38,131 nt of DNA from Basidiobolus ranarum. Its lineage: Eukaryota. Under the pieces are notes generated by a model, which made no database searches, was not told where the DNA came from, and saw only the letters and a program-made list of their open reading frames with translations. The DNA lies in contig JASJQH010006925.1 in assembly GCA_040143965.1 (NCBI GenBank), positions 1-38,131 of the forward strand. The letters run 5' to 3'. How positions within the stretch are numbered: position 1 is the first letter of the stretch; every line of letters starts with the position of its first letter. Below are positions 1,801-25,728 of the stretch, in pieces. The position numbers were made by a program, and so were the translations under genes.

Positions 1801-3726
1801 CTATAAATCAGATTCTTGACATTTTTGCTCTACACTGGGGTCTTCTTTAGAGAACCACACTAGGGTAGAGATGCCAATGATAGCAGATAAAATGCATCCT
1901 ACTAAAGCCCAAATTCCTTTAGCTGTGAATTTCCCGGGTAATGGGTTAGGTCCAGTGGGGTAGCCACTGAAGTCTAGCCCTTCATTTCCAACAGCATTTC
2001 CACTCGTTTTAATTCCTTGGGCAACGCAGTGATCAATTGATTGCTGAGGAATCTTCATACTAGCCTGCAATTGTAGTGGTGCCTCCACAATGGTAGCGAC
2101 CAATCCAGACTCTAGATGCCATTCGATGTGACAATGGAATGGCCAGATTCCTGGATTATCAGCTCTGAATCTGATAACTACATGACCCTGGGCAGGCACC
2201 TGTACTGTATCTCTACGAATCGGATTAGCTTGCTCTTTTACTGGATTTTTGACGCTATCGTATCCACCACCATTTTCAGCACTACGCGACATTACTTGAA
2301 ACTGATGTCCGTGTAGATGGAATGGATGGGCGTCAGCATCCCAGTTGTTAATTACCAATTCAATCATTTGATTGTGCTCAATAACATACGTATTGGTATG
2401 TTTACCATAAACTCGTGGATCGCTAGCCATGGCTCCCATGCTATAGGCGGTGAAGATAGAGGGTACACTTGGGAATAGATATGTTACGTTATTAAACATA
2501 CCACGATTAACCCCATTATCCAAGACATTAAAGAACACGTTAATTTCAATGCGATTGTCAGGAGGAGCCGAGGTAGCGGCGGTAATTGGAACCAAAGAGG
2601 TATCATCGAATTGCATGTCGGGCTGAGCGGAATCTGAGGGTATGTAAAGCGCGGCTTTAGGATCGTATATAATGGTTGCATTGATGTTTGGATTTAGATT
2701 AGGGTTCACCGCCGGGAACATGGATACGTCTACATCCGCATGCATAATGAAATTATTGGCAGTGGAATTTTTGGCGCGAACCAACACAGAATAGCGTTGG
2801 GCAGCAGTGATAGGTAGTGTTTGAACGGTTTTAGAGTTTAAATCCACTCCATCTGCTTCAATGATCTCCAAATCGTGACCATCAATATGGAAATTAAACA
2901 TCGAAAAAGCTGACATATTAATAATACGTAAGCGATAGACTTTTCCTGCTACGAAATTGAAGGTGGCGTTTTGAGACCCGTTTATCTCGCCAGCGTCTGG
3001 TACTGGCTCAGCTCCCGATGGATTGTAAATGCTCAGGTATTTCGACAAGAGTACATCATGTTGCTCATAATACCAGTCAGACAAGGCTACGATATATTCG
3101 GCATCATAAGTGTACTGCTCTTTCTGTGCATGCAATACAATAGGGGCTCTAAGACCGTCTACGTACTGGCCACGGAAATGACTATGAATCCAGTAAGTTC
3201 CATGCTGTTGGATCGGAATTCGGTAAGTGTAATTTCCACCAGGTGGGATTGGGCTAATATATAGTGTTAATGGGTTTAGTTTCCCAAGAGATCTGTATAT
3301 ATGACTTACCATTGCTGAAACATAGCAGCGCCGTCATAATAAGTTGTTCCATTTTGTAAGACTCCGTGCGCGTGCAGAGTGGTCCCAACATCCAGGGAGT
3401 TGTGCTAAAGAGCAGACTTGTTAGTATAACCTTAATAGAGTAGTGTGAATGAAGCACATACCACATTGATAACCAGATCGTCCCCTATAGTAGCCTCCAG
3501 ATGGGGAACTCTAAGAAAATAATTAGTTAGGTTTCAATGTTTACGTATGAAATTCAACCTACGGAAATTGCCCATTGACTCCAATGGCTCTTCGTGGATG
3601 ACCACCAGTTGGGTCAACATTATCCACGTAAGTAATATTCCAGTTGTAGACCTTGTCTGCTGCATGAACGTAGGCCCCCAACACCAGGCCAGAAAGTAGA
3701 AGCTTCTTGAGAGATTCCGTTATCAT
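1801..3726 (-). CDS. FET3: Fet3-type multicopper ferroxidase, 586 aa, with signal peptide and C-terminal TM anchor
   Basis: Exons 3726-3563, 3510-3462, 3404-3310, 3253-1801 (1761 nt). Copper ligand motifs TLHAHG, YWIHSH, HPFHLHGH, HCHIEWHLESGL; Fet3-like GAEPVPD; C-terminal hydrophobic helix; head-to-head with FTR1. Confidence 0.95.
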
Positions 3727-3820
3727 GATTGTAAAGAAGTGATCCAAGCAAAAATGAAGGAACTGAAGAGAAAACTGGCAGATCAGTTGTACTTAAAGGT
3801 TTTTTAGATTTGAACCTCAA

Positions 3821-4727
3821 TTATCAGATTTCCCGTATATGGCATCGCTTTGTCTGGTGAAATTAAAGAGGTTTATGGATGAAATTGGAGTATATTTTAA
3901 TGAAGATCCTTTCGAGTCGTTTATGGGAGATGTACAAGAGGAATGAGGGGTTTTTGTTGTCGAATAGAGTGATTGCAAACGGAAAAGCCCGTAAGACAAT
4001 AATCAAACATCATAGTACTGTCACTTAAACCCAAGTTCTCGATTTATCCATACAAGAAACTTTGTACTACTGATTGACCACTGATTGTTAACCATAAACC
4101 ACTGATTATTATTGTCATGCACAAGCTCGATATAACTATCATATCAGATCATCCTTGAACCATACCATTAGCTATAGCATCTCATTAGCAGCCTTATTCC
4201 CACAAACAAGGTAATTTTATAAAACAAGATTATTGCTAATCTGATCAGGTCAACTGACACCAACATAGGGGAGATAATGGGGCATTAGGCTAAATAGATT
4301 AGGGTGTATCTTCAAGAACTAGACTAAAACTCTTAAATTCAAGAGCTAGACTAAAACTCTTAAATTCAAGAGCAAAAATCCGCTTTTTCTCCCCACAAAT
4401 TTTCTTTAAAGTCCAGGTAACGCCTCTGAGTCACGATGGTTATATCCTTACTGTAACACGAATGTGCAGGATTGGTAGGAGGTAGCGCAACTTTTACTCC
4501 ATTTATCATTTACCGCTCCGTACGCAAGGCAGGTTGCGTAAGATCTAGACCTCAAGCGGTATAATGAACAGATGATATACAGACTAAATCAGTAAGGAGC
4601 TTGCGCTATTAAGGAATCCGTTAAGGAATCCTCTAAAGCTACGTGCTTGTTTATTCTTGCCGAAAACCTGATTCATTCGCGGTCTGAAAATAGCTCAATC
4701 TGATTGAAACCATGCGCCATCTGATAT
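3821..4727. promoter_or_regulatory. Bidirectional FET3/FTR1 promoter with five ATCWGAT iron-responsive GATA-repressor-type sites
   Basis: TTATCAGAT at 3821-3829 (ATCTGATAA on the minus strand), ATCAGAT 4143-4149, ATCTGAT 4239-4245, 4698-4704 and 4719-4725. Matches the ATCWGATAA consensus of SreA/Fep1/Sre1-type repressors. Confidence 0.7.
4319..4372. repeat. Perfect 27-bp tandem duplication in the FET3-FTR1 intergenic region
   Basis: CTAGACTAAAACTCTTAAATTCAAGAG at 4319-4345 and 4346-4372. Confidence 0.95.
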
Positions 4728-4936
4728 GAGAGCTGCCCTGTGTAATTGCACATTTATTAGTAGTTATAATAAAATGTAATCTGGATAGGATACCTAATTG
4801 AAAGGTCAAAAAACATGAAAATACTTTCCTGCGATTTTTGTACATAAAACGAAGAGGTTGCCACCACACTTATCAAAGTCGAGATTTATCTTCTTTTGCT
4901 TTCAGCTTTCCTAGTCATATTTGCTATCTATTCCAA

Positions 4937-6078
4937 ATGGCCAAAGATCTATTCAGTATTCCGATATTCTTTGTTCTCTTTCGAGAAACAATTGAGGCTG
5001 CCATCATTGTCTCCGTCCTGCTTTCTTTCTTAGCTCAAGTATACCAGGACGATACCGTGTTATACCGTCGCTTGAAGAGGCAAGTGTGGCTTGGAACTCT
5101 TCTTGGTCTGCTAGTCAGTTTGGGTATTGGTGGTGCGTTTATTGCAGTATGGTACACTGTTGCTTCCAACCTATGGGCTAAAAGTGAAAAACTTTGGGAA
5201 GGATGCTTTTCATTGATAGCTGTCATCATGATTAGCGTAATGGGATTAGCCATGCTTAAAACGAGTAAGATGCAAGACAAGTGGAAGGTAAAGTTGGCCA
5301 ATTCCTTGAATGATACAGAAGCCAAGGGACTTCGAGCCAAATCACGGAAATACGCTTTATTCCTATTACCTTTCATCACCGTTCTGAGAGAAGGCCTTGA
5401 AGGTCTTGTGTTTATTAGTGGTATATCCATCAGCGAGCCTGTCAGTTCCATTCCCATTGCTGCCATATGCGGTATACTAGCGGGTTGCTTTGTCGGTTGG
5501 CTACTCTACAGGTGATTTTTTATCCATGTATACTCATCGACTCATCACACTAACTTTGAAATATTAGAGGAGGAAACATAGTGAAGTTCCAGTGGTTCTT
5601 TGTAACCTCAACTTGCATTTTATTTTTAGTAGCGGCAGGCCTGTTCGCTAGAGCTATCGGATTTTTTGAGGCTCATGCATGGGCCATCAGAACCAATGCT
5701 GCTGATGCTGAGGCTGATGAAGCAGGTGGAGTCACTTTCGACGTTCGTACAAACGTTTGGTAAGTTTCTCTATGAATTTCTTTTACTTGATTGAAGACTA
5801 AAGAAGATCATTTCAGGTATCTTGATTGTTGCAACCCTGAAAACCCCAACCAAGGTGGCTGGCAAATTTTCAACGCCATTCTGGGGTGGAACAATATCGC
5901 GTCCATTGGCACCATTCTTGGATACGTGCTATATTGGTTAGCGATTGCCGCTTACCTTGTCTTCCTCAAGACTTATCATGGCCGTAGAATCAGAAGAGCC
6001 GATCCAAGTAAGAAGACTGATATCAAGTATAAAAGTTTAGTGATTTCCAATCACGATGGGGAATCATCAAGGAGTTAA
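4937..6078 (+). CDS. FTR1: High-affinity iron permease Ftr1, 342 aa
   Basis: Exons 4937-5511, 5568-5759, 5817-6078 (1029 nt). N-terminus MAKDLFSIPIFFVLFRETIEAAII; two RExxE motifs (RETIE, REGLE); DCCNPE and GWQIFNAILGWNN. Confidence 0.97.
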
Positions 6079-6870: not shown

Positions 6871-9502
6871 TTAGGGTGAGAAAGTAGCTTTGCTAATATC
6901 GGGGAAGGGGAATTTCTGCAATGAAGGAGCAGCGACCTTTCCACTGACATCGATAAACACTGACATGAATTGGGTTGCCTTAAATTCATCCTTATTTGCA
7001 ACAGCTGAAAGAACCACAGTACCCTTGTCTTGACCTTGGGTAGCACCGTTTACCTGAACAAGGGTGGAATTAAATGGGAAGGAGAGTTTCCATTGATCCG
7101 AAATAACACTGCCAGGTTTTTGTGAGGTGATCTTGATCTGTAAAAATTCCAAAGTAAGCCAATAGGTTTGATTCATATCTCTACTTAAAATGTACTTACT
7201 CCCATTTGGAATTGGTTAGATTCAAGTTTAAGGTTGCTAAAAGTAATCAAAAAGTTGCCAATGGCTCTGTGTATCAAGAAATCAGTTGGTTGAGTAGCTT
7301 TAATGTCCACTGCAGCTTCTGGAATACCACGGCGTAATCTTTTACGAAGAGTAGAACAAACACCCAAGTCAGTCCAGACATTCTGCGAGTTAGATCCGGG
7401 AGTGTCATTTTGGGTCCACCATTTCGCTTGCCAGAGGTGACCATTATAGCTAACCTTTTGAGCACCATTGTACGATGTACTTGCACTCCAGGCCGATACT
7501 CCAGCACAAGAACCGCCAGGAGTCTGTGTATTAGTGGGTGAAGTAGAAGTAGTTGTAGTCGAACTCTTCTGAGTAGTAGTAGGTGCTGTTGAGGTGGTCA
7601 CTGGAGGTTTGGATGTAGCTGTAGAAGTGGTTGAAGTAGCTGTGGTAATTACTGTGGTACCACCACCGTTTCCACTGCATCCACTAATTGCACTCCAATA
7701 ACCAGATGTGGCACCTGGTGCTTGACCCTGAGTGTACCAAAGAGCCTTCCATAAGTAGCCATCATATGAGACCACGGAGCCACCAGGATAGGAACTAGCT
7801 TGAGTCCAGGTTCCCGCAGAACTACATGCTGGAAGATTTGGCTTGACATTACAACCTCCACCGTTCTTCAAGAACTGAGTACATTTGGATGGGAATAATA
7901 TGATGAGTAAGGTAAATTAATCATGTAGATTGAAGTTGTTTGGCTACCTTTTTGGTTGCTTGACCATAGTTACTACCTCCAACGCTATTACCCCAGGCTT
8001 GTGAAGCATCCCAGAACATCACACCACCAAAACTACTGAAATTGGCTCTAGTTTGTTCGACCACGGTTTGTAGTTGATCGATTGAAATGTAGCTTAAGAT
8101 GCAAGGTTAGTAAGGTGACGTGAAGCCGTATGACATTATTTATCGTACCCTGATCCAGCAGCCTTGGGTGCAGCAGGAGCACCAATGTAAACTTTGACAT
8201 TAGGATTGGGGGAAATATGAGTAGCCCAGTAATCCCAAACACCAAAGTTCCACGCTTGGTAGTTATTGTAGTATTGCAGACCACCTATTCATCCGAGACA
8301 AGTTAGAATCAAAGCAAGCTCAAATAGAGTATGATTATTGAAGTTACATGGGTTATTATAGAATTGGACAAAGACTAGATCAAACCAGGCATTGTTCAAA
8401 GTGCTACTCAATTGACCATCTAAAGGTTGCATGGTAAAGAACGTTAGATTACGTCTGATTGATTGTCATATTTGACATACCCGGGTAAACGCATTGAGGC
8501 GCAGCGGCGATCAAATATTTTTTACTATTATCTTGCTGGTAGTATGAACGGAGTTGGTTGACGAATGCAACATAACCTGTGGGACCACCACCTTCAATAT
8601 CAAGATCAACTCCATCTAAAATGGCATCACCAAAGGGTCTTGTGTCAGACTTTCCACCTAGGAATAAGTTCCTACAAAATATTTGACCGTTAGGGCTAGT
8701 GTGAATATAATTTTGAGATAATTTGTTACTTACCAGACTTGTGTGGCGAAACCTTTGGCCTGCGTGTCGTCTTGGAATCCGTATGAACCACCAGCTCCTC
8801 CGAGAGAAAGAACAATAGATTTACCACGAGACTGGCAGAATTTAATGTCATCACCAATGCTTGGGCAATTGACCATATTGGTTCCGGGGAAGGTGGCATT
8901 ATCTTTCACATTACAAGTCTATGAACCGGTAAGTTAGAGAGAAAGCAAACTAAATCAATAAAAACTGAATCTCACATTCGCTAGATTTAACTCGGGAAAC
9001 CCGCCCTTTCCGAAATAAGTGTTTAAAAATGCTGTACAGAGGAGTAATTAGATTCTGTCAAGATCTGAAGTAGTACTTGGGAATGTTGCCACTTACAAAC
9101 TGGAATCACATCAGCTGTATCATCTTGACAGTAGTAAGCCAGATTTTTCTGCCAGCCACTCGAGTCACCACCACCACCACCGTAGCTATTTTGACCCCTG
9201 TGAATATCAATGATTACAAGGAAGTAGCGTATTTAGAATTGGTTGATAATGCTTCCGATCATAATCTAGATTTACCAATCTACATCATTAAAAAGTTAGT
9301 TCACGCTCTCAAGAATATCACTAAGAAATACGTACATGTCACAAGATTATTGTTGCAAGTAGCCTTTAGATGCATTAACAAAATATTTAGTTAATTCCTC
9401 ATGGTTCAAATTGCCAAATGAACTTACATCAAACGCCACAGAGGAGTCGATGGTCAACGAAGCAGCAGCCAATACAAGGAGAGTTTTTGCGCGAAGACCC
9501 AT
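6871..9502 (-). CDS. Secreted GH18 (class III / subgroup B) endochitinase with two CBM5/12-type modules, Ser/Thr linker and C-terminal extension, 644 aa
   Basis: 12 exons: 9502-9428, 9363-9336, 9279-9276, 9197-9097, 9031-8976, 8918-8734, 8671-8481, 8419-8348, 8284-8149, 8092-7948, 7874-7200, 7137-6871 (1935 nt). Signal peptide, YWGQNS, LSLGGA, catalytic [33 protein letters not shown]; chitin-binding WKALWYTQG and WQAKWWTQ. Confidence 0.95.
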
Positions 9503-11616: not shown

Positions 11617-13281
11617 ATGTCAGCTCAAGAAAGCACTGCAACCGAGTCTGTTCCTGTTTCTTTTTTGCCTACTACTGTTAGCGACACTTATCCTGATGAA
11701 GATGAGAAGAAGCAGAAATCTGAGGATCCTGAAGAAAAGCCTACCTTTTACCAACGCTTTCGTCTTCCTATCCATATTGCTGCGATAATGCTATACACTG
11801 GTTACATGATTGCTGTCTGGATCCTTCACGGCCGTGATAGTCTTGTCATGTCGTTAATTTGGGCGTTTGTTACTTTGAAGGTCATGTTCTATCATGTCCC
11901 CACTACTATCCTTACCAAACCACTAGGCTGGTTTTTTTCTCGCTTAATCAGATTCGCCATGAGATTCCCAAGCAAGGTTCGCTGGATCGGCTCTGTTGTT
12001 CTCACTGTTGGCCTTATTGTTGGAGTTACACTTGGTTTGCCAGTGGAAACGGGTCACAGTAATTTGACAGATAGAGTAAGATCTTTGGGTGGATTGTGCG
12101 TGTTTATACTTACTCTTTATGCCACATCAAGTAATCGCAAGAGAATTCCTTGGGCAACTGTTATAGTCGGTATATTGATGCAGTTTATCCTTGGTTTATT
12201 CATTCTCAAGACCTCTGTTGGCTACGATGTCTTTCACTGGTTATCAGACTTGTGTTCTACTCTCCTTGAATTCTCAAACGATGGTTTAGCATTCATTGCT
12301 GGTGAAGACGTAGCCAAGACTCAAGTATTCGCTACCACAGTGCTTCCTGCTGTGCTTTTCTTCGCTGCCATTGTTAAGATTGTCTACTTCTTTGGTGGTA
12401 TGCAATGGATGGTTAAGAAGGTAGCCTGGTTCATGGTCAGAGTGATGGGTACTAGCGGTGCCGAGTCTACTGTCGCCGCTGCCTCACCTTTCGTTGGCCA
12501 AGGTGAGTCCGCATTACTTGTTCTTCCTTTCTTGGAGACAATGACAAAATCCGAGATTCACTCCACCATGGTATCTGGCTTCGCTACTATCTCTGGTTCA
12601 GTTTTGGTTGGATTTATCTCAATGGGTGTTGATTCACAATCACTTATTACTTCATGTGTCATGTCTACCCCATGTGGTCTGGCTATTTCAAAAATGCGGA
12701 TTCCTGAGACCGGAGAGCCCGTGACCAAAGGTAAGGTTCGTATCCCAGAATCCGAAGATAAAGAATCCAATTTCTTGCACGCTGCTGCCAATGGTGCTGC
12801 TCAAGGTGTTCAGTTGGCGTTCTTGATCGGAGCCACGGTCCTTGCATTCATGTCACTCCTCGCTTTAGTGAACGCTTTACTCACATGGGCCGGTAACTTT
12901 ATTAACATCGATCATCTGACTCTCGAATTGATCATGGGCTATGTATTTGTTCCTTTCATCTGGTTGGTTGGTATTCCTCAAACGGATTGCATAGATGTAG
13001 CTCGCCTCATGGCTACCAAAATGTTCGTCAATGAGTTCGTTGCTTTTGGTAACCTTACCAGCCCAACAATGGTCCAAAAATTACTTCCACGCACCCAAGC
13101 TTTGGCAGTTTACTGTCTTTGTGGATTCGCCAATTTCGGATCTATCGGTATTCAAATTGGTGCTTTGGGATCTATGGCACCTTCTCGTAGACAAGACCTT
13201 GCCCAACTTGCCTTCTCTGCTATGTTGTGCGGTACGATGTCGACCCTGATGAGTGCTACCATTGCAGGCATGCTTATGTAG
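11617..13281 (+). CDS. Concentrative nucleoside transporter (CNT/SLC28 family), paralogue A, 554 aa, intronless
   Basis: Single long ORF; motifs GTSGAES..AAASPFVGQGES, SGFATISGSVL, KMFVNEFVAF, YCLCGFANFGSIGIQIG..APSRR; many TM segments. Confidence 0.96.
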   Translation: MSAQESTATESVPVSFLPTTVSDTYPDEDEKKQKSEDPEEKPTFYQRFRLPIHIAAIMLYTGYMIAVWILHGRDSLVMSLIWAFVTLKVMFYHVPTTILTKPLGWFFSRLIRFAMRFPSKVRWIGSVVLTVGLIVGVTLGLPVETGHSNLTDRVRSLGGLCVFILTLYATSSNRKRIPWATVIVGILMQFILGLFILKTSVGYDVFHWLSDLCSTLLEFSNDGLAFIAGEDVAKTQVFATTVLPAVLFFAAIVKIVYFFGGMQWMVKKVAWFMVRVMGTSGAESTVAAASPFVGQGESALLVLPFLETMTKSEIHSTMVSGFATISGSVLVGFISMGVDSQSLITSCVMSTPCGLAISKMRIPETGEPVTKGKVRIPESEDKESNFLHAAANGAAQGVQLAFLIGATVLAFMSLLALVNALLTWAGNFINIDHLTLELIMGYVFVPFIWLVGIPQTDCIDVARLMATKMFVNEFVAFGNLTSPTMVQKLLPRTQALAVYCLCGFANFGSIGIQIGALGSMAPSRRQDLAQLAFSAMLCGTMSTLMSATIAGMLM

Positions 13282-13994
13282 AGGTGACACCATTTTACGT
13301 TCATACTAGCACAAAACCAAGTGATTTTAGATGAATACCACTGTATAATATAAAGTATAATATAAATATTGGATCAGCTCACTTTTTCGGTTCATACTAT
13401 ATTAGTAGTAACAAATAAGGAACATGTAGAATTTTCCACTGATCCAGATTTAGATTTGCTTTTCATCATACACTTGTGTCTGCTGACCAAATTCCTATTT
13501 GATGGAAATTTTTCCATCAGGAAGAGCAAATAGGTAATGCAAGTTCAATGGACGATTACTAAGATACCATGCGAGTTTCCATTCGCTCTATCTAAATATC
13601 AATAACTGAATCTGGAATATCTTCAACCTGATTACTAGAAGAATCTTATCTTGCCATTTATAGATCAGATAGAGCGTTTTTCTTTAGATCGAATGGTTTT
13701 TATTTTACATAATATATATAATGAAATTACTTACAAATCAACAAAATGTACATAGATTACGGAACAAAACAAATTAAGTTTAAAGTTACTGAATTAAATA
13801 TTGTAAAAGTTTAGATAGGGATATGAACAGATTTATGAGCAAAGACCAGTTTGAAATCTAAGAAATTATATTGTATAGGTCTTAATAGGGGTACAGATTT
13901 AGATTGGATAATATTCTTTTGCCATGAAATGTCATATTTGAAAATGTTGGAAGCTATGTACAGATCTACATCTTCATTGACAATTCAAATGGGT

Positions 13995-15677
13995 TTACAT
14001 AAGCATACCAGCAATGGTGGCACTCATAAGGGTCGACATAGTACCACACAACATAGCCGAGAAGGCAAGTTCAGCAAGATCTTGTTTACGAGAAGGAGCC
14101 ATAGATCCCAAAGCACCAATTTGGATACCAACTGATCCGAAATTGGCAAAACCGCAAAGGCAGTAAATAGCCAAATCTTGGGTACGTTGAAGTAAACTAT
14201 GAGTCTTTTCCATGGCCATGAGCTGATCAAAAGCAACAAACTCATTGACAAACATTTTGGTAGCCATAAGACGAGATACTTTGATGCAATCGACTTGAGG
14301 AATACCAACCAACCAGATGAAAGGAACAAACACATAACCCATAGCCAGTTGGAGAGTTAAGTGATCAATGTTGATGAAGTTACCGGCCCATGTGAGCAAA
14401 GCGTTCACCAAAGCGAGGAGTGACATGAATGCAAGGACAGTGGCAGCAATCAAAAAGACCAAGTGAACACCTTGAGCGGCACCATTGGCAGCAGCGTGCA
14501 AGAAATTGGATTCTTTATCTTCGGATTCTGGGATATGAACCTCACCTCTAGTCACGGGCTCCTCAGTCTCAGGAACACGCATCTTGGAGATAGCCATACC
14601 ACATGGAGTAGACATGACACAAGAGGTAATAAGTTGCTGTGGGTCAACTCCCATCGAGATAAATCCAACCAAAACTGAACCAGAGATAGTAGCGAAGCCA
14701 GATACCATGGTGGAGTGAAGCTCAGATTTTGTCATTGTCTCCAAGAAAGGAAGAACGAGTAAAGATGACTCGCCCATACCAACGAAAGGTGAGGCGGCTG
14801 CAACAGTTGACTCGGCACCACTAGTACCCATCACTCTGACCATGAACCAAGCTACCTTCTTAACTATCCATTGCATACCACCGAAGTAGTAAACGATCTT
14901 TACAATAGCACAGAAGAAGAGGACAGCGGGAAGTACTGTGGCAGCAAATACAGGGGCTTTAGCGGCACTATCACCGACAATAAATTGTAAACCGATATTA
15001 GAGAACTCAAGGAGACTAGTACACAAGTGTGAGATCCAATTGAAGATATCGTAGCCAACAGAGGTCTTAAGAATGAATAAACCAAGAATGAATTGCATCA
15101 AGACTCCTCCAATAACTGTAGCCCAACGGATCCTCTTACGATCAGTAGAAGTAGCATATAGAAGGAGGAGGAAAGCACATAGACCACCCAAAGATCTGAC
15201 TCTGTCTGTCAAAGAACTGTGACCACCTCCAGATGGCAAACCAAGGGTAGTACCAGCGATAAAGGCAACAGTGAAGACAACAGAAACAATCCAACGAATT
15301 TTGCTTGGGAATCTCATGGCAAACCCGATTAACTGGGAGAAAACCCAACCTATCGGTTTGGAAACAATAGAAGTTGGGACATGATAGAACATGACCTTTA
15401 AACTGACAAATGCCCACAATAGAGAGGGAACAAGAGTTTTATGACCGTGAAGAATCCAGGCAGCAATCATGTAACCGGTATATATCGCTATCGCAGCGAT
15501 ATGAATAGGAAGACGAAAGCGTTGATAAAAGGTAGGTTTTTCCTCAGGATCCTCACTTTTTGGCTTCTTCTCATCATCCTCGATATACGTATCGTGGATA
15601 GTAGTTGGCAAAAGAGAAACTGGAACAGAAGTGACTGTCTGGTCCTTAACTTCTTGAGATGACATTTCTATATCCAT
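13995..15677 (-). CDS. Concentrative nucleoside transporter (CNT/SLC28 family), paralogue B, 560 aa, intronless
   Basis: Same motifs as paralogue A and highly similar along its length (identical C-terminus MSTLMSATIAGMLM); has SPFVGMGES where A has SPFVGQGES. Confidence 0.96.
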   Translation of the reverse strand: MDIEMSSQEVKDQTVTSVPVSLLPTTIHDTYIEDDEKKPKSEDPEEKPTFYQRFRLPIHIAAIAIYTGYMIAAWILHGHKTLVPSLLWAFVSLKVMFYHVPTSIVSKPIGWVFSQLIGFAMRFPSKIRWIVSVVFTVAFIAGTTLGLPSGGGHSSLTDRVRSLGGLCAFLLLLYATSTDRKRIRWATVIGGVLMQFILGLFILKTSVGYDIFNWISHLCTSLLEFSNIGLQFIVGDSAAKAPVFAATVLPAVLFFCAIVKIVYYFGGMQWIVKKVAWFMVRVMGTSGAESTVAAASPFVGMGESSLLVLPFLETMTKSELHSTMVSGFATISGSVLVGFISMGVDPQQLITSCVMSTPCGMAISKMRVPETEEPVTRGEVHIPESEDKESNFLHAAANGAAQGVHLVFLIAATVLAFMSLLALVNALLTWAGNFINIDHLTLQLAMGYVFVPFIWLVGIPQVDCIKVSRLMATKMFVNEFVAFDQLMAMEKTHSLLQRTQDLAIYCLCGFANFGSVGIQIGALGSMAPSRKQDLAELAFSAMLCGTMSTLMSATIAGMLM

Positions 15678-22248: not shown

Positions 22249-23866
22249 ATGTCACAAGCCAGTAAACCACCTCAAATACAAGAAATAGAGGACGATGATG
22301 ATGCCAATAATAATAATTTAGGGTACGCCTGGGAAGAAGAATATAAAAGAAGTTGGGATGTGGTACAAGAGGATGAACAAGGTTCACTTCGAAGTGTGGT
22401 TGCCAATTTACAACAACAAAAGCGTAGACGGTGAGTTAGTTTATTCTCTTCCCTTACTCGAATCATAGTCAATAAAATTGGAGGTTTCAATTCTTTTTCT
22501 GAAAACCACCGTTTTAATGGAAATTTTTTCTTCTTCCACTTAGTCTTTTACGTGATACTTCGACTATTCGACGTGGAATCATTCGTCACTTGTACTTAAT
22601 CTTGGATATGTCGGCTGATATGATGGAAAAAGATTACCGTCCACACAGGTTGGGTTTAACTGTAAATTACGTGGAAGCTTTTATTCTGGAGTATTTCGAC
22701 CAGAACCCTATCAGTCAAATCGGTTTGATCATTACTCGAGATGGAATTGCTGAGAAGTTAACTGAGTTGAGTGGTATGTTGACAACACTGGATAACGATG
22801 TGTGTTGATAGCCATTCTAAGCTAATATTCTTTGTTGGACATCTAGGCAACCCTATGGATCATATCCGAGCAATTAGAAACAAAAACAACCAAGATTGTG
22901 TTGGTGAACCGTCACTCCAAAATGCTCTAGAAATGGCGAGAAATGCACTCAGGTTCGATCAACATTCAATAGTGAATACCATAGAACTTAGCTAAAGCAC
23001 AAAGCGAACTATTTTCTAATCGAATTCTTCATAGTCATGTACCTTCCCATGGATCACGGGAGATTCTGGTGATTTTTGGTTCATTAACAACTTGCGATCC
23101 CGGGAATATTCACGAAACCATCCAGTTGCTTAAAAACGAAGAGATACGGTGTTCAATGGTTCAATTATCAGCAGAGGTTCAGGTATTCAAGACTCTGTGT
23201 AAAGAAACGGGTGGAAAATTTTCAGTCGCCATGAATGACATGCACTATAGAGATATCATGTTTGAAACCATCCCACCACCTCCCACTACCACTGCCAATA
23301 GCTCATCGAATTTAGTGAAGATGGGATTCCCCACACGAATTGTAGAATCTATTCCATCGTTTTGTGTATGGTAAGGTTGGACTTGCGTTTGTCAGTTGGC
23401 CAAGTACTGAACTCAAATAACTCCTTCATCCCTAGCCATCAAAAACCTGTTCTTGGTGGCTTTGTGTGTCCTAGATGCAAATCCAAGATTTGTGAACTAC
23501 CTACCGATTGCGACGTGTGCAATTTAACCCTAGTCTCCAGTCCACATTTAGCGCGTTCATACCATCATTTATTCCCAGTGGAAAATTTCGTTGATGTCGA
23601 CATTGCTCAGTAAGTCCCTCAGTTGTTAACACCACCCACGCATACACGTACTAACATTCATTGTATTAACCAGATGCACTAGTACTTGCTGTTTTGCTTG
23701 TCAAATGACTTTTGAGAACAAGCGAGACGATACCACCGAAGAGAATCTACTGTCCGATATTACACCTCGTTTTCAATGTCCCAAATGTAAAGAGCATTTT
23801 TGCATTGAATGCGATTTGTTTTCTCATGATATCTTACACAACTGTCCTGGTTGTTCACAGAAATGA
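22249..23866 (+). CDS. SSL1: TFIIH core subunit Ssl1/p44, 406 aa
   Basis: Exons 22249-22430, 22544-22773, 22847-22952, 23035-23370, 23436-23609, 23674-23866 (1221 nt). GYAWEEEYKRSW, RRGIIRHL, YFDQNPISQ, GEPSLQNALEMA, GSLTTCDPGNI, SSPHLARSYHHLFP and C-terminal zinc finger ending LHNCPGC. Confidence 0.96.
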
Positions 23867-24345
23867 CTTCTCTTACATTATCAATAGAAAGTGAAGCTTT
23901 GTAAAATATGCCCTTGGTCTTACTAACTTCTAATCCTTTTACGATGGATTTGAGTCACAAGCCTTAGTTTGGAATAAATGAGCCTTCATACACACGTTAG
24001 AAATAAGCCCATTTACTTTCATACACATCTACAATATTTCACAACCCCTTCCAAACGCCAGTAAATAAATCGAATATTCTAAACCTTGAGTGTTGCTTCT
24101 GTTTCAACCAGTTCTAATTCTAATCCCTCACAAGGTTAATGCGAGTTTCTAAAAATAATGAAATCATCCTAGGCGTAGAATGTCCCGATGTGGTAGTATC
24201 TCAAGTTAAGATTTAGAAAGCTCGAAAGGTTCATTTATGCACTCCAATTTCACTTATTTATATGTTTACTATAGTAGAAGAGGATCACTTTCTTTACAAA
24301 AGTACTCCTAACGTCTCTAACAAGCTATCTCGTGATTTAAGTCCA

Positions 24346-25130
24346 ACAAAAGGAAATATTCTATATGAAAATATTAAATTATTTTGAGCTAGAAGACCGA
24401 AAGAAAGCGTCAAACAGTCTCAACTCTGTAATGAAAACCATTCCTCAGATTTATCTTACCCTAGTTGAGAAGGATCCTTCCGAGAAAGAGAGAACCGACC
24501 TTTATAGTAAGCAATTCTATTGGGAGAAACCACATATTATCCTTCCAAGTCGATAGGATGAAAGAACTTTTTGAAACTGAGTTTTTCAGTCCCTGAGAAT
24601 GGTCAACAAGTGAACGAATGGTTCGAGAAGAAAACACACGATCGTTTGGTACGACCCTTTGAAGATGATAAGGCCTTTTCTCAAAGTAATATCATATTAC
24701 TTAATTCCGTAAGAAGCAGAAACCATTATGACAAGATAAATTTGGTGCTAGTATAATTCTTCCAAGAGAGGTTTACTTTTCAAGAAGCAGAAACCATTAT
24801 GACACCTGAAGATTGGTATTTCATATTTTTAGAATGTACCATAAAAAAGGAAGGAAACGTTTTTCTCCCAAGATTCGGGCTGGAGTAAAGTTTAAAGTTA
24901 AGTGAAAGACTTCAACAGTTTGGTATTCAAAAATAATTCGACAGAAAACAATCTGACTTGACTGAAATCTCCTCACTACCCATAGTAGTGAAGGAAGTAA
25001 ATCATAAATGAAGGAAACAGATGACTTGATTTGCTTATTCTGCTGATTTAAAATGGAAATGAATCTTGCGAGTGCATTTACTGCTGTCATCATGCTAGCT
25101 ATATTTCATGGCAATTTCATCACCTTTTAA
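24346..25130 (+). pseudogene. Degenerate serpin (serine protease inhibitor) pseudogene, apparently intronless
   Basis: Serpin blocks in the correct order across frameshifts: TKGNILYE/ILNYFEL, FIVSNSIG, MKELFETEF, QQVNEWFEKKTHDRL...NIILLNSV, FGASIILPRE, FQEAETIMTPEDW, EGNVFLPRFGLE*SLKLSERLQQFGIQK*FDRKQSDLTEISSLPIVVKEVNHK, and weakly AIFHGNF. In-frame TAA at 24886 and 24934; internal deletion. Confidence 0.82.
24711..24804. repeat. 23-bp direct repeat inside the serpin remnant
   Basis: AAGAAGCAGAAACCATTATGACA at 24711-24733 and 24782-24804. Confidence 0.95.
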
Positions 25131-25275
25131 TTTTGAATGCATTAGCATTTTATTTTTGAATTCACAGATCGTAGCTATGTTCAAGATCCACATTGAAATA
25201 AAGCTCATATCATTAATGTTAGGTAAGATTGTTTATTGTATAATGAATGGGAATGCAACAATTGAATAAAAAGAG

Positions 25276-25728
25276 TTAATGTTCGCAGTGAGTCTTGTAA
25301 GCATCTTCGTCCATCAAACCATCTAATTCAGCAACATCAGCAAGCTTGATCTTGCAAAGCCAGCCTTCGTCTTCGGGAGAGGTGTTAATCAAACCAGGGT
25401 TAGAATCTAAAGCGCCATTGGACTCTACAATCTCACCAGCAAGAGGGGAGTAAATGTCAGAGGCAGCTTTGACTGATTCGACGGCACCAATTTGGGCATT
25501 GGCTTCGACAACAGCTCCAGTTTCGGGAATATCTACGAAGACAACATCACCTAAGGCCTTTTGAGCGTAGTCGGTGACACCAACGGTACCAACACCATCA
25601 GTAACTGAGACCCATTCATGGTCTTCGGTATATTTCTTGATGGTAGAGTAGTAAGCAGCTCTGTGGAGAGGGGAGGCTCTAACAGAGAAGTTACGGAAAA
25701 GAGAGAAGGAGAAGGTACGAAGAGACAT
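25276..25728 (-). CDS. GCV3: Glycine cleavage system H protein, mitochondrial, 150 aa
   Basis: Intronless ORF; Arg/Ser-rich presequence; KYTEDHEW, GVTDYAQKALGDVVFV, lipoyl-lysine motif VESVKAASDIYSP. Confidence 0.97.
   Translation of the reverse strand: MSLRTFSFSLFRNFSVRASPLHRAAYYSTIKKYTEDHEWVSVTDGVGTVGVTDYAQKALGDVVFVDIPETGAVVEANAQIGAVESVKAASDIYSPLAGEIVESNGALDSNPGLINTSPEDEGWLCKIKLADVAELDGLMDEDAYKTHCEH

Follow-up and report, generated by a model that had tools for sequence, protein, structure and literature searches.

We analysed a window of 38,131 nt, that is, positions 1 to 38,131 of the forward strand of contig JASJQH010006925.1 (Basidiobolus ranarum, assembly GCA_040143965.1). In this window the gap between the genes SSL1 and GCV3 holds a decayed serpin gene, a serpin pseudogene that persists in B. 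ranarum as a dead remnant. Its parts and the genes used as landmarks are collected in Table 1. GCV3 is present in four copies in the assembly, i.e. the window copy and three others that are 77-85% identical to it (L010, L011 and L012), and the tested SSL1 exon in one copy. Among the other genes of the window, as judged by eye, positions 1801-6078 carry a divergent pair which we take to be a Fet3-like multicopper oxidase and an Ftr1-like iron permease, and positions 7185-8937 of the minus strand presumably carry a chitinase-like gene with two small Trp-rich chitin-binding modules at its end around a Thr-rich linker. Two one-exon nucleoside-transporter-like paralogues, 91% and 82% identical to one Basidiobolus meristosporus protein, lie tail to tail at 11617-15677.

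Table 1. Parts of the serpin relic and neighbouring landmarks, in window positions.
Feature	Position	Strand	Evidence or remark
Nucleoside-transporter-like gene, synteny marker about 11 kb from the relic	11617..13281	+	90% cluster holds K493DRAFT_322897
SSL1 (TFIIH p44), left neighbour, multi-exon, extent estimated from open frames	22518..23866	+	Pfam Ssl1, E 2.6e-40
Decayed serpin gene, old ATG to old stop	24262..25196	+	935 nt; P0015 CDS is 1152 nt
N-terminal part, helix A to strand 2A region	24262..24560	+	Segment score 125, shuffle maximum 39
Helix E, strand 1A, helix F, start of strand 3A (VNEWFEKKTH ... ILLNS)	24561..24711	+	Segment score 145, shuffle maximum 32
Large-deletion junction, filled by exact 23-nt copy of 24782-24804	24711..24733	+	Alignment
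Best-preserved part: sheet B/C strands, helices G-I, strand 5A to VNHK	24735..25011	+	Pfam Serpin, E 5.7e-14; segment score 270, shuffle maximum 45
Destroyed proximal hinge, 26 surplus bases at the family's intron position	25012..25067	+	Spacing compared with paralogues
Distal hinge and reactive-centre loop (ASAFTAVIML), strands 1C/4B/5B, old stop	25068..25196	+	Segment score 66, shuffle maximum 31
GCV3 (glycine cleavage H protein), right neighbour, one exon, convergent with the relic	25276..25728	-	Pfam GCV_H, E 3.2e-43

Identity and anatomy of the relic

The six frames of the relic were scanned against Pfam with stops read as X. Frame 3 of the plus strand matched the Serpin family (PF00079; MEROPS I04) with 52.5 bits against a cut-off of 27, and the same scan gave no Pfam family in the other five frames, including those of the minus strand, which rules out a coding feature there. 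A genome-wide profile search picked up 24775-25011 independently (E 1.9e-8). Frameshift-aware alignment of the relic to a set of 16 proteins gave the highest scores with two proteins of B. meristosporus CBS 931.73, K493DRAFT_345533 (hereafter P0015; score 515, 51% identity) and K493DRAFT_319740 (P0017; 496, 50%), over about 295 aligned residues. P0001-P0003 scored 283-306, four other Basidiobolus proteins 63-151 and seven non-Basidiobolus serpins at most 87, and the maximum among 25 shuffles aligned to P0017 was 43. Each of the four coding segments listed in Table 1 also scored above 100 of 100 dinucleotide shuffles. We therefore considered chance motifs to be ruled out by the Pfam match and the shuffle controls together. 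The first-pass annotation, made from the letters alone, had called a serpin on a series of short motifs and had named the Pfam model as the check; all of these motifs are present, on the plus strand and across three frames, and the profile match bears the call out.

In the alignment to P0015, residue 1 falls on the ATG at 24262 and the last aligned residue is 382 of 383, followed by the TGA at 25194-25196, so that the relic ends where its orthologues end. The extent first proposed, 24346-25130, was too small. Along the relic, the N-terminal part has lost about 24 codons near 24370 and has frameshifts near 24370 and 24500; the next segment has a frameshift near 24582 and keeps the shortened spacing of its clade (see below). 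After ILLNS about 50 codons are missing (P0015 residues ~176-227), in agreement with the deleted strand region already noticed here, and the source of the 23-nt copy at the junction lies 71 nt downstream; this copy looks like a templated insertion made during break repair. The best-preserved part has a frameshift near 24774 and stops at 24886 (TAA), 24934 (TAA) and 25009 (TGA), and the last part a frameshift in the loop near 25101, two further frameshifts, a stop at 25157 and a loss of 6 codons.

In total, the 935 nt contain at least four in-frame stops, about nine frameshifts and three multi-codon deletions. The stops and nine frameshifts are common to the alignments to P0015 and P0017, the exact places of the frameshifts being alignment-dependent. 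The first reading had the two TAA stops right and had overlooked the TGA stops at 25009 and 25157 and the ~9 frameshifts. It had also described the hinge and reactive-centre loop as scrambled, which holds only in part: the proximal hinge is destroyed, while P12-P10 (ASA) are kept and the stretch ASAFTAVIML, the motifs of strands 1C and 4B and the SYVQDP before the stop are still recognisable. Since the first frameshift comes about 36 codons past the start codon and core strands are gone, the relic makes no serpin and cannot encode the serpin fold. The GC content of the relic is 0.343, compared with 0.395-0.436 in five intact coding sequences and 0.347 in its 5' flank.

Intact relatives, the hinge intron and the loss of the gene

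A profile search of the B. ranarum genome, with 11 candidates scored, yielded 8 matches that fall on six loci. One is the relic and the other five encode the full-length proteins P0001, P0003, P0012, P0013 and P0014, annotated as hypothetical or serpin-domain proteins, so that the intact copies expected elsewhere in the genome do exist. All five belong to subfamilies other than that of the relic. In B. meristosporus we found four serpins (P0002, P0015, P0016 and P0017). On contig C4, near a serpin gene, the start of another gene (L001:3717-4163) matches Pfam RNR_Alpha (E 5.5e-12); it possibly encodes a class II enzyme.

A maximum-likelihood tree was computed from 39 rows chosen from 230, namely near neighbours in a FastTree tree plus named animal and bacterial proteins. 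In it the relic, P0015 and P0017 form a clade with support 100/98, and the end branch of the relic is 0.50 long, compared with 0.11 and 0.19 in the orthologues (plus a shared 0.098). P0015 and P0017 are collinear with the relic from start to stop; they are full-length open proteins, annotated as hypothetical or serpin-domain, whereas the relic is broken throughout. Our literature search found no functional study of either. Searching the B. ranarum genome with P0015 (13 matches from 11 candidates) returned no intact orthologue, the best intact match being 44-45% identical over the main exon; this assembly is fragmented into 13,754 contigs and may be missing one. As far as the two assemblies go, the subfamily of the relic thus consists of two intact genes in B. 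meristosporus and the relic only in B. ranarum, which agrees with the birth-and-death turnover suggested for the family at first. Disabling lesions together with an intact orthologue in a relative make the relic a candidate unitary-type pseudogene.

The region is probably syntenic with the scaffold of P0015. Precisely, the transporter counterpart K493DRAFT_322897 (91% identity) lies on a B. meristosporus contig of 214,922 bases and the contig of P0015 also has 214,922 bases, hence the assignment rests on equal contig size and not on gene order. Two kinds of copy were looked for in B. ranarum and rejected. A recent DNA duplicate was discarded on the grounds that a DNA search of the genome matched the relic locus alone. 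A second SSL1-GCV3 block, homeologous and with the serpin intact, was discarded as well, SSL1 being single-copy and the flanks of the other GCV3 copies being without a serpin: in the stretches examined, the flanks of the three other GCV3 copies gave no serpin match, and in the comparison of the window with the examined stretches of the five serpin contigs the serpin alone matches, among the matches listed.

All five intact paralogues are interrupted at the hinge by a single GT-AG intron of 59-75 nt, and its removal yields the annotated protein. The claim that this serpin was intronless therefore fails for the family; the first exon of the intact copies, of about 1 kb, corresponds to most of the stretch on which that claim was based, and in the relic itself an intronless state is not readable. 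In fact, 59 nt separate 25009 from 25068 in the relic, where 33 would be needed if it were intronless, and the surplus stretch of 26 bases contains a branch-point-like CTGAT at 25043. The surplus bases are likely an intron remnant. Among the intact copies the intron is placed 4 nt apart in L001, L002 and L005 with respect to L003 and L004 (phase 1 in a Gly codon, or one codon upstream in phase 0), which suggests either intron sliding or two gains. The 338-residue model of P0016 (K493DRAFT_341021) in B. meristosporus stops just past the hinge glycine, at the start of the family's intron; that gene model probably ran into the intron.

The hinge stretch 25012-25067 contains neither a GT donor nor a suitably placed AG acceptor, as could be expected if the relic had arisen as a processed copy by retrotransposition, or by a late dispersed duplication, and were not the original gene. 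We consider such an origin very unlikely, given that the surplus bases with CTGAT lie exactly at the intron position, that no poly(A) tract is present downstream of the stop, that the assembly holds no parent gene of the subfamily and that the region is probably syntenic with that of the intact P0015. That the breaks are assembly errors in an intact gene, for which the fragmented assembly and the exact 23-nt duplication (a conceivable misjoin) could speak, is barely credible in view of so many stops, frameshifts and multi-codon deletions beside neighbours with open frames and of a long branch and lowered GC that indicate real decay.

Relationships and origin of the family

Fungal serpins are found mostly in Neocallimastigomycota and Entomophthoromycotina according to the parts of PMC8778642 used here, a table of which lists 8 serpins for B. 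meristosporus, a single one for Conidiobolus and 12-13 for three anaerobic fungi. The closest relative that we found outside Basidiobolus is a serpin of the amoebozoan Dermamoeba algensis (P0054, EukProt EP01097). It was the top outside BLAST match for eight of the nine Basidiobolus serpins, with 36-40% identity to seven of the nine, and scored 323 bits, the next domain scoring 234. An HKCR motif before the hinge occurs in 8 of 279 domains, all from Basidiobolus or Dermamoeba, and a short spacing of 28-29 residues between strand 2A and helix F, about 7 below the mode of 36, in 13 of the 185 domains in which it could be measured (94 could not). P0054 has both traits and, like the Basidiobolus serpins, has no evident signal peptide; it differs in coming from another eukaryotic supergroup and in being a single transcriptome record.

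In the tree, Basidiobolus and Dermamoeba form a clade (99/97) in which Dermamoeba is nested among the Basidiobolus paralogues (99/92). Monophyly of the Basidiobolus serpins was not rejected in an AU test (p 0.157), and the nesting is therefore not firm. We searched the literature for Dermamoeba and serpins and found nothing, nor did we find the amoeba grouping in print, in a search that had most subscription journals outside its reach. Two further searches are to be read with their limits. The one with the C-terminal 101 residues of the Dermamoeba protein gave 14 proteins from 267 candidates and was insensitive, since it did not recover even the Basidiobolus proteins; in the HMMER search, which covered 1.84 billion representatives, multi-domain serpins crowded the list, and its results are the best 150 of 39,364. 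A metagenome contig of eukaryotic appearance (L050:80-1310, with a WD40-like neighbour, as judged by eye) carries a serpin that has the short spacing without the motif of the clade; despite this spacing it is placed elsewhere in the tree.

Two origins of the family were weighed. In the first, the family is a serpin subfamily of microbial eukaryotes, which was either passed between amoeba and Basidiobolus lineages or inherited from an ancestor of both and widely lost. P0054 as best outside match, the two rare traits (HKCR and the short spacing), and the clade support speak for it; against it stand the single amoeba sequence, which comes from a transcriptome assembly and may be a contaminant, the uncertain nesting and the thin sampling of eukaryotes in the tree. 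We give this origin about an even chance of being right.

In the second, which takes up the bacterial acquisition first suggested for this gene, an old transfer from gut bacteria reached the ancestor of Basidiobolus and was followed by intron gain and duplication, a course that we regard as possible and on the unlikely side. The next branch outside the clade is a serpin from an Alphaproteobacteria metagenome-assembled genome (MAG), P0018 (95/89), which is also short-spaced; beyond it follow two named MAG loci (Bacteroidaceae and Clostridia) and two metagenome proteins (92/96), and a tree with the clade joined to animals falls 24.6 log units short of the free tree. Bacterial transfers moreover make up 2-5% of Basidiobolus genes in the account of PMC7466969 used here. 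However, P0018 has the longest branch (1.6) and is only 27-31% identical, the grouping with animals is not rejected (AU p 0.066, from a constraint with five named animal serpins and eight named bacterial ones), the 15 confirmed loci in GTDB are 23-32% identical to the query, and every intact copy has an intron. The consulted parts of PMC8233489, the largest serpin phylogeny that we considered, describe how similar serpins of distant lineages gather in a 'hub', and leave the fungal serpins as unclassified orphans.

A recent transfer, as one form of the bacterial acquisition first imagined for this gene, is not supported: the nearest outsider is amoebozoan, the best bacterial BLAST matches to the Basidiobolus serpins reach about 28-33% identity and all five intact copies bear introns. 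Close donors were also sought by pattern scans, which find only sequences with the chosen motifs, and none was accepted: 15 of 56 pattern matches were confirmed in GTDB, all at the low identity given above, 10 of 89 in metagenomes (22-31% identity) and 0 of 25 in viral contigs. The sets used for the tree had no identified serpin of anaerobic fungi, ascomycetes, plants or archaea, and the clade thus cannot be placed among those groups. The word 'serpin' is absent from the main text of PMC7466969, whose supplements may list these genes as transfer candidates, and from the text and two supplements of PMC11291939. For the serpins of Nosema, the part of PMC9820262 used here leaves the origin open.

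The living serpins and the meaning of the loss

Serpin is the sole Pfam family in P0015, P0017 and P0014, and the precomputed domains show the same for each of the nine Basidiobolus proteins; the two orthologues of the relic match the family with 244 and 231 bits. The predicted model of P0015 (pLDDT 83) is folded as a native serpin, its loop at 333-349 being disordered, and superposes on intracellular inhibitory serpins such as human SCCA1/serpin B3 (2zv6, TM 0.83) and bacterial miropin (5ncs) with TM 0.83-0.84; both share with it a small-residue hinge and are only 24-25% identical, hence the likeness is one of functional analogy and not of close kinship.

Inhibitory serpins have a hinge consensus of Gly at P15, Ser or Thr at P14 and small residues at P12-P9. 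A hinge of this type is present in seven of the eight full-length Basidiobolus proteins examined; the exception, P0014, has TVVPP, a proline-rich hinge that should not insert and makes P0014 a probable non-inhibitory serpin. P0014 (L005:966-2206) and P0016, 60% identical, represent a subfamily kept in both species. The loops vary among the copies. In most of them Ser or Cys comes after an Arg or Lys, and those of P0015 and P0012 are hydrophobic. In five proteins with an inhibitory hinge and in P0054 the Arg or Lys stands one place ahead of the usual P1, as counted from the hinge glycine, a count that is ambiguous by one residue. This placement suggests a loop one residue short and targets of the trypsin type. 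In a crude hydropathy window, the N-termini of ten clade members scored 0.8-1.8, compared with 2.7-3.3 in four secreted-looking controls. A secreted role against gut proteases, as first proposed, is weakened by these N-termini without a hydrophobic leader, and a secreted shield appears unlikely.

The proposal of an undescribed anti-protease system stands in one respect and not in another: Basidiobolus serpins had already been counted in a 2022 supplement, and no functional study of them was found. The only functional test of a fungal serpin that we found in the literature concerns the myco-serpin MBR_07878 of Metarhizium brunneum, the knockout of which lowers virulence on Drosophila (PMC13236867; Basidiobolus is not mentioned in the passages used here). 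As described there, MBR_07878 resembles the Basidiobolus serpins in being a single-domain fungal serpin of patchy distribution, although it is an ascomycete protein. None of the proteins found in our searches bore the name of Metarhizium or of any other ascomycete, and a close kinship is therefore not indicated. The celpins of Piromyces (Neocallimastigomycota), proposed to guard against environmental proteases (Steenbakkers 2008, as cited in the consulted part of PMC8778642), also come from an early-diverging gut-dwelling fungus. As they are described there, they carry CBM_10 modules and belong to an extracellular cellulosome, unlike the single-domain, signal-less Basidiobolus proteins; we rejected membership among the celpins, as the proteins studied here have a Serpin domain alone, no CBM_10 and no hydrophobic leader.

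Taken as a whole, the observations are very probably explained by the death in place of a chromosomal serpin gene in the lineage of B. ranarum, with living relatives that are mostly cytosolic suicide inhibitors. The relic would descend from one of four subfamilies of serpins that predate the split of B. ranarum and B. meristosporus. In the living proteins, as their fold and hinge suggest, a protease would cut the exposed loop, the Ala/Ser-rich hinge would let the loop enter sheet A, and the enzyme would be trapped. The cytosolic placement is read from the lack of a hydrophobic leader, and that the living Basidiobolus serpins are cytosolic suicide inhibitors is likely as far as such sequence features can tell. 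Signal-less serpins of this kind might meet proteases leaked inside the cell, or those of a gut or predator when the cell is eaten or lysed; between the fungus's own proteases and those of whatever eats its cells, the chances are about even. Loss of one subfamily would fit a small family with turnover, the members of which are partly redundant.

A wider reading takes the Basidiobolus proteins as an arsenal of signal-less serpins with diverse bait loops, common only to this fungus and the amoeba, which moved between amoebae and fungus and serves as a cytosolic defence against predators or gut proteases, the relic being a lost specificity class. The signal-less defence proteins of mushrooms are a precedent for cytosolic defence. 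We hold this reading to be doubtful, well behind the death in place of one gene among mostly cytosolic inhibitors.

The relic is a further member of a known superfamily, with nothing unusual in itself. As an ordinary dead gene, it is of value as a pointer: fungal serpin families are few, and in this one it shows turnover. It further marks a difference in gene content between two Basidiobolus species, one of which is an opportunistic pathogen. Following it up brought out a well-supported grouping of the Basidiobolus serpins with an amoeba protein. In this family the intact paralogues and not the relic would be the testable material.
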